Shown here piece by piece: positions 1,797 to 50,538 of a stretch of 64,000 nt of DNA (position 1 is the stretch's first letter; each line of letters starts with the position of its first letter). The notes under the pieces are model-generated. The model was not told the origin of the DNA. It searched no databases and worked only from the letters and a program-made list of their open reading frames with translations. This DNA comes from Octopus vulgaris (lineage: Eukaryota), in NCBI GenBank assembly GCA_951406725.2, contig OX597826.1, positions 67,890,001 to 67,954,000 on the forward strand, written 5' to 3'. The translations under genes were made by a program, and so were the position numbers.

Positions 1797-1988
1797 GATA
1801 GATCGTTATCCAGTACACACATTTTTTTCTCTCCTTGTTTCTCTCCTTGTTTTTTCTTTGTACCTTTCTGTAGAAGAGCGTAGGCTAGAAACGCAAAAGA
1901 ATTTTTCTATTCCTGAGCGCTATACTAATACATCTGTTTGTTTTGTACACCACCTGTTTTCGCATTTTGTTTTTTCGTAAACTTTCGC
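1797..1988 (+). mobile_element. Short (TA)n-flanked element with degenerate minimal hammerhead motif (Penelope-like derivative, family H1)
   Basis: Flanked by TA tracts. 1864-1899 reads CTTT-CTGTAGA-A-GAGC-gtag-GCTA-GAAAC-GCA-AAAG: stem I CTTT/AAAG with three core or stem deviations. Confidence 0.6.
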
Positions 1989-2019
1989 TATATACATATA
2001 TACATACATAGCATTCCAA

Positions 2020-2200
2020 TTAAGAAGTATGAAACCCACAGAATTGTCCCCCCTTATTCACAGGAACTGGATAACTCCTACCCCATTTTCTGTTATGACA
2101 TATGAACATCCAATCTTCTCGAACAAAACACTTCACTAAAACACATCCTAATCCTTCAAAGAAGTTTTTCCATGGAATAATATTGAGCTTTATAGCTTAA
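2020..2200 (+). pseudogene. Possible very old mariner transposase C-terminal relic
   Basis: Frameshifted LS(P)PYSQELD...FLL..M resembles mariner HPPYSPDLAPSDYHLF; weak. Confidence 0.3.
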
Positions 2201-3390
2201 AGACGCTATGATTTATTGGTATACTTATTTATTAATTTTTGTATATATTTATTATTTTTCTGGAAAAAGACATTATAAATTTTCCCCCCTTCCTCATCAT
2301 ACACGAAGGTGTGGGCTTTATTGTATTGCGAAAGACGTGGTTAGAGGGACAGCCTTCCGGGCTGTGTTACAGGCCTTAGAAAACAACAGAAGGACCGATG
2401 AAATAAGTGTGAGAATATAAGAGGCGAATACGTTCAATAAAGTCATAATTAGCTAATCCCCCTGTATTGTCTTTTACTAAAAGTCAGCAACATTTCTGTA
2501 CAGGCTCGCGTATATGTATACATGTATATATGTATGTATGTATACATGCATACATACACACATATACGTATATCTACATATACATAATTACGAAACGAAA
2601 TCGTGTGTTTAAGAAACGTGTACCCACACAACTCTTTGTGTACCTTTCAGAAGATCGTAAATTTCTTATCATTTCCTATACTAAGGGGTCAAGAGATTGC
2701 TGACGTTTCGGGAGAAAACATTCGTCTGGGACAGAAAGACCAATATTTCATACATAAAAAAGCCAAAAAAAAAATTAACAGGAAAAAAGAAGCAATTTAT
2801 GAGCTTCATTAAACAATTTTTGGCCAATGCAGACGACTGCCACAATATTCTTCGTACATTGTCCGTATCTTTATATTTGTTATTCGTGATTTATAGACGT
2901 GTGAATACATTTTACATCTATAGACCATTTTGTACGGTACCTTGGCAGACTTTTCGAAATTAGTGTCCATTTTTCTACAGCAAATATTCCAAAGAAAAAA
3001 AAAAGAATATATAAGAAAAAATAAAACACTAATGCCAAAAAGTATATACATATATATCTCCAGATATTTTATTGGAATATAAAACCATTTCTTAACTTGT
3101 CTTACCAATTCCACTGACTGACAATACAGTATCAGAGATTCTCTTCTTTCTTAATGTTTCATATTTCTTTAGACCGTAAAAGTTGTGGTAATAAACATTT
3201 ACGCCATAAACGTGGAAGTAGCTGAAATTTTTTCTTCTGCAACTTGCAATCAAATCAAATCTCGGCTTTCGTCACACATACAGACACCTACCCTTGCGGA
3301 TACGCGTAAAAACTAATACTACACGCATATACGCCCCCACACTTACACACACACACACATACATACACACACACACATATATATATATAT

Positions 3391-3697
3391 CACCGTGATC
3401 ACCGTGACCGACCAGGCTATCAGATGTTTCTACACATCGCTGGTCACAATGCGCTTCGCATTGTTTTAGCCATTCAAATGACGCCACCCCGCTGGCTAAG
3501 CGAGCAGGCTAACATAAGAGCGAGAGAAAGTTGTGGCGAAAGAGTACAGCAGGGATCGCCACCATCCCCTGCCGGAGCCACGTGGAGCTTTAGGTGTTTT
3601 CTCTCAATAAACACTCACAAGGCCTGGTCTGGAAATCGAAACCGCGATCCTCCGACCACGAGTCCGCTGCTTAACCACTGGGCCATTGCGCCTCCAC
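3391..3697 (-). mobile_element. tRNA-derived SINE, family C head with tail type F
   Basis: Reverse complement GTGGAGGCGCAATGGCCCAGTGGTTAAG...GGTTTCGATTTCC gives A and B boxes. Head shared with 15925-16113 and 24496-24670. Tail 3391-3510 matches 21248-21360 in the opposite orientation. Confidence 0.88.
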
Positions 3698-4476
3698 ACA
3701 CATATATATATATACATACATGCATACATACGTATGTATGTATATATATAAACAGAGTTAGCGGTTATAGCAACCGACTATACTCGCGTTTAAGTATAGT
3801 CTGCATTCTGGTAATCTGATTAGAAACGGCTGTAAGATATGTTATGTCATGCTTTGTATTAATAAACAAGCTATAAATGTGGTCCAATCGATGTGTTGTT
3901 TAATCTATGGTCTTCTCCATTTTCTAATTATATATACATATATACATACATCCCTATCTATCTACTTATCTATCGATCTATCTATCCGTCTCTCTCTATA
4001 TATTTATATGCCAACATATCCTGCTTTCCAGCCAAGATGCAGGGCGTGAAATACTATCTTCAGTGATCTGATGCACATGCGAGATATTCCTTCAATATGC
4101 CTTTTTAAATATAAATACATAAACTGTTAATCAAAGTAGTTCAGGTTTAGTGCAAGCGTACAAATCATCAGCGTGGAGAGTAGTCTGAAAACATGTTCGC
4201 TTGCACGTTCGTCTATAATCTATCAAACCGTTGTGATGTCAGATTGAAATTCAACGATTTATGAGGAAGTGCAAACGATAAAATTCAATTTCGGCGAACG
4301 TCACTCGCATTTAGAATACTCGACCAGTGTCAGGAATTGAATTTTCGATACTATTTAGATACACATCACCATGTTTTCGTTTTTAAGGCAATGTGGTTAA
4401 TAACAGGTAATATCAGATTGCGCTAGTTAAATAAATATTGAACTAGTGCACAATCCAGCAATCCATTCAGTATATA

Positions 4477-48289: not shown

Positions 48290-48582
48290 GAGCGCATGTC
48301 CCAGTGGTTCGAGCGCTGGACTCATAATCGCGAGATCGTGGTTTCAGTTCCTAGAACAGGTAGTGCGTTGTGTCCCAGAGCAAAACACTACATTTCACGT
48401 TGCTTCTGCGATCACTTCACCTTATGCGTGTCACACAGTCTACACGCCAGACAACGTCGATTTGATGGAAACAGTGTGCGACGATGCGGTACGAACATTT
48501 GATCACTATTACCAAATCACATGTGAAGGTCGTTCGGCAAATGCTGATCGCTCCATACGTCGGCTTCGACGGGAGACTCCAT
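48290..48582 (+). mobile_element. tRNA/CORE-like SINE with another distinct tail
   Basis: CCCAGTGGTTCGAGCGCTGGACTC..ATCGCGAGATCGTGGTTTCAGTTCC, then GTGTCCCAGAGCAAAACACT (CORE-like); ends at (TA)n. Confidence 0.7.
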
Positions 48583-48977
48583 CATATATATATATATATA
48601 TATATATATATATATACGTCAAAACACCTCCCACCGTCCAATGGACAGTGCTGAGTTGTCAAACATTTAAACCAAATTTTCACAAAACAACTTGTCCGAC
48701 CGTCCCATAGGCTTCCCCTTTGAGAAACACTGATTTAACCTAAATTTGAGACACCAGCAAAAGAAGAAATAAAGATAGACTTTGTTTCTATTCCAAAGAA
48801 AAACGATTTTATTTTCGCAAATATGCAATCGAAGAGTTTAAAGTACCAGTAAGTACATCGCAACAGCTGATGTACTTGCGCGTTACAAATGCACATTTCC
48901 ACGGCTTTATCGATCGCATTCTCATCTCGAATCGATTATTGTAATTTTTAAAGACCTATTCACGCTCTGTACCGTCG

Positions 48978-49086
48978 GTATCTACATATCAAATTTGAGC
49001 GCAATCGGATGGAGGATGCCCGAGATCATAGAAGACACACACACGCATGCACACAGAACGGATTTTCTATTATATATATTGATAGA
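48978..49086 (-). mobile_element. Non-autonomous Helitron-like 5' fragment
   Basis: Reverse complement A|TCTATCAATATATATAATAG...(TG)n...CCGATTGCGCTCAAATTTG has the layout of non-autonomous Helitron 5' ends. Confidence 0.55.
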
Positions 49087-50359
49087 TATTGAGATATGAA
49101 CTAGACGCAGCAAGAGTGTTGGAAGCATTTTCGAACACATGTACACAATGTATGCGCTTTGCTTGTTCGTCAGTCGGCTGTGGCTTGACGCTGTGGAGAT
49201 GACTCTCTCAAAGCGCCGCGTTTTAAAACACCTGACACTTGTAGTTAGAGGCGGTTGAGACAATTTACCTCTGAATAGGGTCTTGGGGTAATTTGCCTCG
49301 TCTATCTATGACAATGAATTTCAGATGTTTTCAAACTAATATTTCATCACAGCTGACTTAGAAAGAAGTAAAGCATAGGTTACACACACAGAAATGGAAA
49401 GAGGAAAATAATGGGATACATATTTGTGTGTGTGTGTGTGTCCTGTTGTGTAAATATGTACGCGTGTTTGTTTTTGAGTTTGTGTTTGTGTATATGTGTG
49501 TATATAGATGCATGTATTTTGTATATACTTGTATCTACATGTTCCAATGCATTAAGTTGGTTTTCATATATTTTATACAGATGTTTAAAAGTTTCTATAA
49601 CATGCGTGTTTTTGTGTACATGTGTGGCCATTTGCGCTTATGATAATGTATATATATATATATATATATATATATATATATATATATATATATATATACA
49701 ATGATGTATATATATATACTTACGTATATATGTATATATATAGATATATATATGATTGCATACACACATTCACACACATATATATCTATATATATATATA
49801 TTAATATATATATATATATATATATATATATATATATATATATTTTATATTGAATATGTTTCTATTGACTATCTATACATGCTAGGCCACTGGTGGCGAT
49901 ATTTCTAGGAATATCCGCTACCCTATATAAGTATCTTACAAATATGATCTTAGCATTCTCGAAGAATCAACTCGGCATTTTCCATTTACTACCGACTGAA
50001 GCTTCGCTTGCGCGCTGAATTTTGAAAAATTATAACATATAATGATGAGTCTCGTGTTATTTATTTCTGAATTATAAGTTAGTTGTTAAGGCTGGTTACT
50101 GATGAGAATTCGCCAAGCAAATTATCTTATTTGCTAAAGAAATTTGAAACCTAAGTATAACCGCAAAAAAATAACAAGGTAAAAGTTTTTATTTTTCCTT
50201 TCCTTAGAAAATTGTTACTAAAATGTGGTTTTGGTCGTTTTAGCTGCTTCTTCTAGCGTAGTAAAATTACCTGTTGAAATGTAGTTTTCTCTTGTGTTTA
50301 AATGTACTATATTATTATATATATATATATATATATTTTATATATATATATATATATAT

Positions 50360-50538
50360 ATTTTCCTCTGTCTTCCATCTCTGGATCTTTCCTTCTCCTA
50401 TGTTTCCGACGAAGAGCTCCGCTCGAAACGTTATAACCCTCCTTCTTCCCTTCCTTCCTGAGCGTCCAATAATACTTAATTTGTTCCAAGTCCTCGCGTT
50501 GTTGTGTTTTTTTGTGTTTTCTTGTTTGGATTAACTTC
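50360..50538 (+). mobile_element. Second family-H2 element in (TA)n with minimal hammerhead-like motif
   Basis: Homologous to 5330-5508. 50402-50437 reads GTTT-CCGACGA-A-GAGC-tcc-GCTC-GAAAC-GTT-ATAAC. Confidence 0.78.

Follow-up and report, generated by a model that had tools for sequence, protein, structure and literature searches.

The six minimal hammerhead motifs of the window, the whole 64,000-nucleotide stretch of octopus DNA analysed here, probably lie in pLTR copies of four protein-coding Penelope-like elements (PLEs), families A–D, likely inserted by the elements' own RT and GIY-YIG endonuclease (EN). The pLTR of family D opens with a tRNA-Arg-like cassette that is likely a Pol III promoter and would let this pLTR spread as a SINE. 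The features of the window are as follows.

1795–1987 (+): solo pLTR unit of family B, a PLE with Zn-finger linker, flanked by TA repeats; EN upstream in L032/L174
1864–1899 (+): family B minimal hammerhead, with U at position 6 of the family core (CUGUNGA); copy without the G10.1-C11.1 pair and without U16.1
5292–5506 (+): family A solo pLTR unit flanked by (TA)n; its 5′ end falls at the family's start cluster
5371–5405 (+): family A minimal hammerhead, U4C core; copy with broken stem II and U16.1
26958–27301 (−): family C PLE 3′ end, 5′-truncated, short form without tail, terminating in (TA)n
27077–27120 (−): family C hammerhead with a canonical core and an AA loop on a 2-bp stem III; the sole intact copy of the six
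40020–40033 (−): short inverted remnant of a family D head, a fold-back at the 5′ end; other copies are arranged alike
40035–40113 (+): family D head resembling tRNA-Arg, with A and B boxes, a predicted Pol III promoter
40113–40153 (+): family D internal (AAT)n spacer
40154–40300 (+): family D tail, the opening codons of the PLE ORF with ATG at 40174; short form lacking the ~30-nt extension
40203–40247 (+): minimal hammerhead of family D; the core is canonical, and this copy lacks one base of the palindromic stem III
42838–43153 (+): family D copy truncated at the head end, with expanded (AAT)n and tail
43061–43106 (+): family D hammerhead, decayed, with a stem I mismatch adjoining the core
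50361–50538 (+): family A pLTR unit, 5′-truncated, flanked by (TA)n
50402–50437 (+): family A hammerhead, family-type core, with stem I disturbed

All six motifs of the original prediction were found at their coordinates and on their strands, and they fall into four dispersed repeat families, A (5371 and 50402), B (1864), C (27077) and D (40203 and 43061). As predicted, most copies are decayed, only one of the six (27077) being intact when scored against the family majority. With the shuffled controls proposed at that stage, a strict descriptor gave two matches (27077 and 40203) versus none in each of 12 shuffles; a one-mismatch descriptor gave four matches, one of them not among the six, versus one to six in the shuffles, and missed 1864, 43061 and 50402. 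Rfam, which had been proposed as a check, gave no hammerhead among the window matches listed (150 of 262), nor in focused C and D scans. ARAGORN called no tRNA in the window, the long open reading frames of the window were microsatellite read-through, and tblastn of two PLE proteins against it found no match. Single window copies are weak against chance, and the motifs are established because of the family evidence.

In each family 40/40 scored genome matches were obtained, the other copies being 90–96% identical. Exact whole-genome pattern counts gave 31,417 intact-looking motifs for A and B together, including 17,971 of the B type (U6), with 2,004 for C and 2,708 for D, and the reversed-pattern control gave 0 in the whole genome for every family pattern. 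The minimal type-I hammerheads of the Penelope kind are thus as numerous as had been supposed, and the expected short elements were also seen, most copies of the families being units of ~200–350 bp without an ORF. Their density had been set too high at about one per 10 kb: motif-spanning copies numbered 26 in 60 fixed-position 10-kb chunks, or ~1 per 23 kb. The window contained no tandem array of these units, its copies being single or inverted, and one head-to-tail B dimer (L048) was detected among 30 B loci.

An extra nucleotide after position 9 and a G10.1-C11.1 pair are present in all four families. Stems I and II pair within the families and stem III is palindromic or tiny; the loopless palindromic stem III that had been ascribed to most motifs holds for A, B and D (ACGU), and C has a 2-bp stem III with an AA loop. 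Among this genome's PLE families the stem sequences vary with pairing kept, and the extra nucleotide and palindromic stem III persist. The family consensuses had been expected to keep conserved stems and the core CUGANGA / GAAA / UH: the stems are conserved, and the majority core matches in D and departs in A (C4), B (U6 in 57/58) and C (A9 in 24/58 and C9 in 32/58, the latter also in 85 of the first 100 family C matches listed). In the B core, only position 7 varies freely (A36, T12, C6, G4; n=58). The U6 and C9 variants fall on positions that mutagenesis holds essential, and catalysis in families B and C is doubtful, judged from sequence. Upon MFE folding, D was the only family whose monomer formed stems I and II; the dimer MFEs were generic duplexes and are therefore uninformative on dimer folding. 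No 5′ truncation cluster appeared at the cleavage site in DNA copies (0/11, 0/7, 1/49 and 0/21), and RNA-seq ends over the D tail, including the cleavage site, showed no cluster in two fragmented libraries of a related organism, which are insensitive to such ends.

Each family is the pLTR of a protein-coding PLE, with a GIY-YIG endonuclease ORF upstream on the same strand. RT was seen in the upstream ORF for A, C and D; B showed the endonuclease only, at one locus. The adjacent Penelope RT/GIY-YIG ORFs that the original prediction proposed to look for are thus present. For A, RT or EN lay upstream on the same strand in 8/9 fetched loci, in the order pLTR-ORF-pLTR in L270 and L276. For B, GIY-YIG was located ~1 kb upstream in L032/L174, one EN locus carrying the whole B link. 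The hammerhead-bearing unit of C lay downstream in 19/30 EN-probe loci, and partially in five more, with RT upstream, and the D head stood directly behind the ORF in 9/10 loci; no D element was obtained at full length. The D ORF matched RVT_1 (E 1.4e-10), and its protein had 56 database relatives, most of them with RT/PF26215/PF28514. At one locus the D tail ran in frame into the ORF N-terminus, aligning to residues 28–85 of P0003 at 47%. The pLTR therefore occurs both before and behind the ORF in A (L270 and L276), and the D unit trails the ORF and also opens it. Since single loci link each family to a PLE ORF, they are not the independent non-coding elements first proposed.

Nor are the four families unrelated, as had been claimed, although their number stands: A and B are sister families with a common stem II and endonucleases 55–60% identical. 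Translations of A, B and C carry a CX2-5CXXC linker between RT and EN (the first Cys is changed in the single B copy), which is the linker criterion of the Neptune or Nematis clade. D has a C-terminal EN and no Zn-finger linker, the Penelope/Poseidon criterion in the available text of Craig et al. 2021 (PMC8557442), an assignment judged without a reference tree. A quick RT tree, which had four non-coding rows and no named references for the clades, shows only D standing apart from A, C and a 781-aa family, and the clade names do not draw on it. A microsatellite lay at the 3′ end in 75/82 A, 44/66 B, 65/101 C and 8/72 D copies, against a background of 648/6000. The (TA)n preference is confined to the Zn-finger-linker families, so that the predicted lodging in and targeting of microsatellites holds for A–C and fails for D, in which (AAT)n is internal. 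As regards the further suggestion of a probably unannotated mobilome, PLEs are already a counted class in the octopus repeat annotation, at 6.83% and 190 families (PMC13282606), and the word 'ribozyme' has 0 occurrences in the available text of that paper.

Several candidates were rejected as the partner of D: linker-bearing PLEs (twenty 3′ ends inspected by eye, none D-like), a C-related family (no D match in 30 loci) and the RT adjoining D in L280, which is unrelated. The sequence preceding the D (AAT)n in three loci was likewise rejected as part of D, being the end of a separate LINE. Relatives elsewhere were found in nine metagenome loci, all distant (30–55%), in one of which a hammerhead followed the ORF; no A/B-box match was seen in the nine, relaxed ARAGORN calls in 8/9 were discounted as noise, and viral contigs held no relatives.

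The arrangement of the copies was analysed further. Divergent (5′-to-5′) inverted units were observed in 28/53 for D, none being convergent, and in 17/100 for C. Of the control repeats, two occurred on both strands in 3/152 and 0/78, and a third in 43/465 units, with 27 divergent and 23 convergent. Within 400 bp, no divergent pairs were found for A (0/93) or B (0/73). A 3′ tail was present on one arm only in 21/23 D pairs, in 17/18 of a separately picked D set and in 20/21 resolved C pairs. An inverted partner with a tail at one end is called PLE-specific in the available text of PMC8557442; thus the C and D insertions, whose inverted pairs have one tailed arm, bear a PLE signature.

The tRNA-like head of D (40035–40113) did not figure in the original prediction and is the most unusual feature. 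The D pLTR runs from a tRNA-Arg-like head with A and B boxes through (AAT)n into the opening codons of its own Penelope/Poseidon-type ORF, which enclose the hammerhead within the first 25 codons, 34 nt past the ATG; the locus order is ORF-head-(AAT)n-hammerhead. Compared with 30 of the genome's own tRNA genes (six isotypes), the head was closest to Arg(TCT) with 49 identities, followed by Arg(TCG) with 47; neither Rfam nor ARAGORN called it a tRNA. The A and B boxes are conserved across 67 D heads, and the head lay upstream of 38/53 full D tails. Among 71 head-bearing D arms, 52 begin within −30 to +9 and eight extend further, the D 5′ cluster falling where the tRNA alignment begins. The 5′ ends of A and B also cluster, 62–83 nt ahead of the core (A 9/20 and B 13/32 incidental copies). 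As these clusters lack a tRNA head, the D 5′ cluster alone is no proof of Pol III.

No T4 run occurs in the D head or tail; the A and B units hold three and six. The D ORF contains 1, 0, 0 and 0 T4 runs in four 3′ parts and 0 in 7/8 5′ parts, and five other PLE ORFs contain 2–9 each. This near-absence in the D ORF was counted as support for its end-to-end reading by Pol III; the shortage gave P 0.027 by base shuffling and was not significant with a codon-aware null (P 0.26–0.66 per piece).

Long and short D copies have an identical majority sequence (14 versus 66 heads and 14 versus 117 tails) with no diagnostic differences, and because of this identity there is no separate SINE lineage of D. 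SINEs are described as LINE-dependent. Short D shares its 3′ region with an autonomous partner, and this partner is a PLE, not a LINE. On the best reading, D is likely a PLE that has captured a Pol III promoter and spreads its pLTR as a SINE. A tRNA-headed or PLE-mobilised SINE was not found in the accessible literature, outside which lie most subscription papers, Repbase, SINEBase, Dfam and the element-list supplements.

We infer the following course of events. The pLTR would be the element's 5′ leader, duplicated behind the ORF. Downstream of the hammerhead there would be a fixed priming site for the RT, which would copy as far as the transcription start and there run off the template, giving the 200–350-bp units; longer templates would yield copies that extend into the ORF. 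In D, a 5-bp palindrome at the 5′ end could let the cDNA fold back and so produce the inverted arm. A motif on its own would not cleave, since a second copy is required for stem III; according to the published model, cleavage would be restricted to tandem pLTR-ORF-pLTR transcripts, in which paired motifs may free a unit-length, ligatable RNA. A bolder version, which we regard as unlikely, would have D, as an autonomous PLE, read over its full length by Pol III from the captured tRNA-Arg promoter, with tandem cleavage and ligation rebuilding the whole ORF on an RNA circle, run-off copies forming a PLE-driven SINE and inverted pairs feeding dsRNA to A-to-I editing. As the D hammerhead lies inside the ORF start, two-copy cleavage and ligation would restore a complete ORF.

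It is possible, though not our favoured view, that the hammerhead folds are structural signals (for RT recognition, translation or, in D, coding constraint) or relics, and do not cleave in vivo. The fixation of U6 in B and the C9 majority in C fit this view, as do the missing cleavage-site ends in DNA truncations and RNA reads, the weak in vitro activity of minimal motifs reported in the available text of PMC4209133 and the Naiads, which thrive without hammerheads (PMC8557442, available text). However, fragmented RNA-seq is insensitive to such ends, the cores are canonical in D and in the window's C variant, and the stems have diverged among PLE families and yet pair, with the extra nucleotide and palindromic stem III kept. 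Slightly less probable, in our judgement, is that the PLE 5′ leader of D carries the tRNA-like cassette as a passenger, left over from an old tRNA or SINE; Pol II would then transcribe from a pLTR promoter, as it does in Drosophila Penelope, and the short copies would be solo pLTRs of the ordinary kind seen in A and B. The headless 5′ clusters of A and B, the identity of long and short D and the non-significant T4 shortage in the D ORF are all compatible with a passenger, and the internal promoter and TSS of Penelope sit in the pLTR (PMC8557442, as available). A passenger does not sit well, however, with a 5′ cluster that matches the start of the tRNA alignment, with the retention of both boxes over 67 heads, or with a D pLTR free of the T4 runs found in A and B units.

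The view that these are four unrelated, non-coding, microsatellite-targeting retrozyme-like elements spreading via circular RNAs is largely refuted and very improbable. Although most copies are short and lack an ORF, one B dimer was seen among 30 B loci, and a preprint, in its available text, treats retrozymes as non-autonomous PLE derivatives (10.64898/2026.07.22.740005), the ORF is continuous with the unit in all four families, the window holds no tandem array of units, the ends of the units show no permutation at the cleavage site, A is related to B, and D is not microsatellite-associated.

Minimal hammerheads in PLE pLTRs are already known biology. Family D adds a short element with a tRNA head, present in tens of thousands of copies, that carries PLE insertion marks and is a PLE pLTR. 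If D does use Pol III, it would exemplify a way for a SINE to be born, by promoter capture inside the autonomous element, the PLE analogue of TRIMp3. Since its ends are fixed and lie in unique DNA rather than microsatellites, D is tractable for studying how PLEs form pLTRs, inverted arms and one-sided tails. B (U6, ~18,000 intact copies) and C (C9) offer natural tests of the importance of catalysis, and inverted D pairs may supply much editable dsRNA.

Octopus tRNA-derived SINEs, the families OK, OR1 and OR2 of tRNA-Arg origin, were reportedly described by Ohshima and Okada in 1994. Short D is possibly the same repeat, likened by description alone (a tRNA-Arg-like head and a few hundred bp); a hammerhead or PLE link for these SINEs was not found in the accessible literature. 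In the available text of Cervera and de la Pena 2014 (PMC4209133), the minimal hammerheads of PLE pLTRs form many families per genome, occur mostly as single copies ascribed to truncated PLEs, and resemble ours in the extra nucleotide after position 9, the G10.1-C11.1 pair and the palindromic or absent stem III; the U6 of B, the C9 majority of C and the tRNA-like head of D are not described there. The Neptune/Nematis and Penelope/Poseidon PLEs of PMC8557442, as far as its available text goes, share the order of RT and C-terminal GIY-YIG, the pLTRs, the inverted 5′-truncated copies and a 30–40-bp tail at one end, and their (TA)n bias goes with the CX2-5CXXC linker, as in A, B and C, D being without linker. 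Their pLTR promoters overlap a 5′-UTR intron, whereas the D pLTR starts with a tRNA-like cassette and has its hammerhead in the first ORF codons.

The non-LTR retrozymes (PMC7229834; 10.64898/2026.07.22.740005) are also short type-I hammerhead units related to pLTRs, but are defined in the available texts by tandem arrays and circular RNAs, the octopus units being arranged otherwise. The schistosome SM-alpha and Sj-alpha SINE-like elements (PMC6765202) combine, like D, a Pol III-type promoter and a hammerhead in a short repeat; in the available description their units are repeated in tandem, each cleaved unit has the promoter at its 3′ end, and a partner is not named, whereas D is dispersed or inverted, promoter-first and part of an identified autonomous PLE. 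The TRIMp3 elements Cassandra, Helenus and Ajax (Kojima 2024, PMC10886601, available text) likewise have small-RNA-derived sequence, a likely Pol III promoter, within the terminal repeat. They are non-autonomous LTR elements, whereas D is a PLE whose cassette is present in the autonomous element as well.

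The 2.8 Gb genome that hosts the window is assembled in 227 contigs; the window itself has a GC content of 34% and abundant microsatellites. Inspection of the sequence found all six of the predicted hammerhead motifs, which lie among other repeats as follows.

1864, forward strand: motif of family B
5371, forward strand: motif of family A
12564-12927: head-to-tail array of a 184-bp repeat
13517-13784: 140-bp repeat, two copies
27077, reverse strand: motif of family C
29424-29833: compound 26/37-bp minisatellite
40203, forward strand: motif of family D, with (AAT)n and a 79-nt head upstream
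43061, forward strand: motif of family D
50402, forward strand: motif of family A
51984-52536: second array of the 184-bp repeat

No credible ORF was found by an ORF scan of the full 64 kb, and tblastn with two PLE (Penelope-like element) proteins gave no PLE protein match in the window. Judged as single window copies, the motifs were weak. A strict descriptor gave two matches against none in each of 12 shuffles, and a relaxed one gave four against one to six; Rfam returned no hammerhead among the window matches listed (best 150 of 262) or in focused scans of C and D. As anticipated, copies were mostly decayed, the C copy alone of the six being intact. Judged as families, the motifs were solid. 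Queries of the genome with A, B, C and D each gave 40/40 scored matches, and exact patterns counted 31,417 A/B-type motifs (17,971 of them U6), 2,004 C motifs and 2,708 D motifs genome-wide, with 0 in the reversed control of each. The cores were CCGACGA (A), CUGUNGA (B), CUGAUG(A/C) (C) and CUGAUGA (D), and after each core came one additional purine, then a stem II closed by G-C; stem III was a loopless ACGU in A, B and D, and two pairs with an AA loop in C. Sixty fixed-position 10-kb chunks held 26 motif-spanning copies (A 5, B 13, C 1, D 7), about one per 23 kb rather than the proposed one per 10 kb, which extrapolates to roughly 120,000 in the genome.

We then consider what the families are part of. 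Three of 30 A copies ran on into a CA-rich region, which, used as a probe, retrieved a GIY-YIG endonuclease with a CX2-5CXXC linker. RT (reverse transcriptase) or endonuclease coding sequence lay upstream on the same strand in 8/9 fetched A loci, as the original prediction had suggested looking for, and two loci (L270 and L276) had the order unit-ORF-unit. In one B locus a related endonuclease lay ~1 kb upstream; its 55-60% identity to that of A makes A and B sister families, and the four families are not all unrelated as had been supposed. Among 30 loci collected with C endonuclease DNA as the probe, the hammerhead unit was downstream in 19 and part of it in five more, with RT upstream. For D, a pattern search for loop variants retrieved loci with an endonuclease or RT coding region passing straight into the tRNA-Arg-like head, which followed the ORF in 9/10 loci fetched with an RT probe. 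These links in all four families contradict the idea of independent non-coding elements, and an origin from PLEs is very highly probable. The predicted lodging in microsatellites held for the 3' ends of A (75/82), B (44/66) and C (65/101) but not of D (8/72), against a background of 648/6000; section 15 of PMC8557442 reports microsatellite ends for linker-bearing PLEs.

Hammerhead-like sequences also occurred outside the four families. A young linker-bearing PLE family (L151-L154 and many more matches), whose copies on different chromosomes scored identically and include many open frames of 781 aa, had a UUGAUAA (U3-A8) variant at its 3' end, and further PLE families (L156, L124; L282-L310; L173, L071) had CCGAAGA with a bulged stem II or UUGAAAA cores; the genome's motif count therefore exceeds that of the four studied families. 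The 184-bp repeat (66 units in 600 kb) matched the hammerhead-like pattern of the loop-variant search at its 5' end in L398 and L399. A distant PLE on a metagenome contig (L420; 30% identity) had a similar minimal hammerhead ~200 nt after its ORF and no A/B-box match.

The D protein had RVT_1, no Zn-finger linker and 56 relatives, and by a criterion given in PMC8557442 fits Penelope/Poseidon. Translated from its own ATG, the D tail matched the N-terminus of a database relative (P0003), which had a similar peptide across the hammerhead stretch, and in one genomic copy the tail continued into the ORF. On these grounds the D pLTR (pseudo-LTR) is predicted to be the 5' end of the element, running from head through (AAT)n to ATG, with the hammerhead in about codons 10-25. 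A head lay within 500 nt of 38/53 full tails. Against 30 tRNA genes of the same genome (six isotypes), it was closest to tRNA-Arg (49 and 47 identities, followed by tRNA-Cys with 46), and its A-box and B-box letters were conserved over 67 heads. A second B-box-like stretch (window 40169-40200), directly ahead of the hammerhead and overlapping the first codons, is possibly a decayed tRNA 3' half. In five loci (L008, L111, L272, L234 and L260) there was a LINE 3' end that terminates in (AAT)n and is often placed within or ahead of the (AAT)n of D; this LINE resembles TAA-targeting Dong/R4 elements.

Divergent inverted pairs accounted for 28/53 D units and convergent ones for none, compared with 3/152 and 0/78 units having both strands in two control repeats and 43/465, of mixed orientation, in a third. 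Exactly one arm carried a ~30-nt extension in 21/23 D pairs (binomial P 3e-5), in 17/18 of a separately picked D set and in 20/21 resolved C pairs (four unresolved; binomial P 1e-5). According to Craig et al. (PMC8557442), non-LTR elements have not been seen to have such inverted pLTRs and tails.

The anatomy, ORF links and end distributions are the observed part of a mechanism in which RT would prime at a fixed site 3' of the hammerhead, short templates would yield solo pLTRs, and fold-back would be made possible by a palindrome, TGCCC-AC-GGGCA, at the start of D. Short A and B copies had 5' ends clustered 62-83 nt ahead of the core (9/20 and 13/32 incidental copies, the latter figure blurred by subfamily divergence), and C ends were spread; we infer that most A and B copies arose by run-off at a start site within the pLTR, and C copies by random truncation. 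Use of Pol III by short D, from its predicted promoter, seems rather probable: of 71 head-bearing arms, 43 began at -12 to +9 (nine at -30 to -13, 11 within the head, eight into the ORF side), a cluster coinciding with the 5' end of the tRNA; both boxes are conserved, and T4 is absent from the unit. On the other side, A and B have 5' clusters without a tRNA-like head, and the T4 shortage along the D ORF (P 0.027 by base shuffling) was non-significant by codon shuffling. Long and short D copies shared the same majority sequence. Truncations at the cleavage site numbered 0/11, 0/7, 1/49 and 0/21, without clustering, so the RNAs that inserted were apparently uncleaved or re-ligated. Inverted arms, sitting on opposite strands, cannot serve as dimer partners, and tandem pLTRs alone can. 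That one or more of the families cleave in vivo is slightly more likely than not.

In two raw RNA-seq runs (X23 and X24; ~12-13 million records each) from a related organism, 7,026 and 5,654 reads matched the D tail (L103:1467-1636), with mate directions equal; neither run showed clustered read ends on the tail. Across thirteen A>G or T>C rows the RNA mean was 11-13%, compared with 1.1% for contigs and 3.2% (42/1314) for genomic copies; across fourteen other rows it was 15-17%, compared with 7.2% and 7.6% (108/1418). Four reference-private rows were dropped. An A>G and T>C excess is expected if ADAR edits inverted D pairs, but because a 10% threshold was used to choose the rows and the reads come from another species than the genome, the comparison only suggests editing. 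Six organisms (X15-X20) contained 69-76% of sampled words of the D query, so the family is likely common to related species.

The finding is real, and most of it is known biology. A 2014 paper (PMC4209133) already described minimal hammerheads in pLTRs, the majority of them in single truncated copies. A tRNA-headed PLE or PLE-mobilised SINE was not found in the literature searched; short D may already have a SINE entry in Repbase-type libraries or in the 1994 paper on octopus SINEs. Earlier work describes a Pol III promoter together with a hammerhead in schistosome repeats (review PMC6765202), small-RNA cassettes within the terminal repeats of TRIMp3 (PMC10886601) and a tRNA-like sequence within an RTE LINE (PMC5786205). 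The ribozyme-dependent, cap-independent translation outlined for RNA viruses in PMC13725137 is no more than a lead on a possible way of translating D RNA that lacks a cap.
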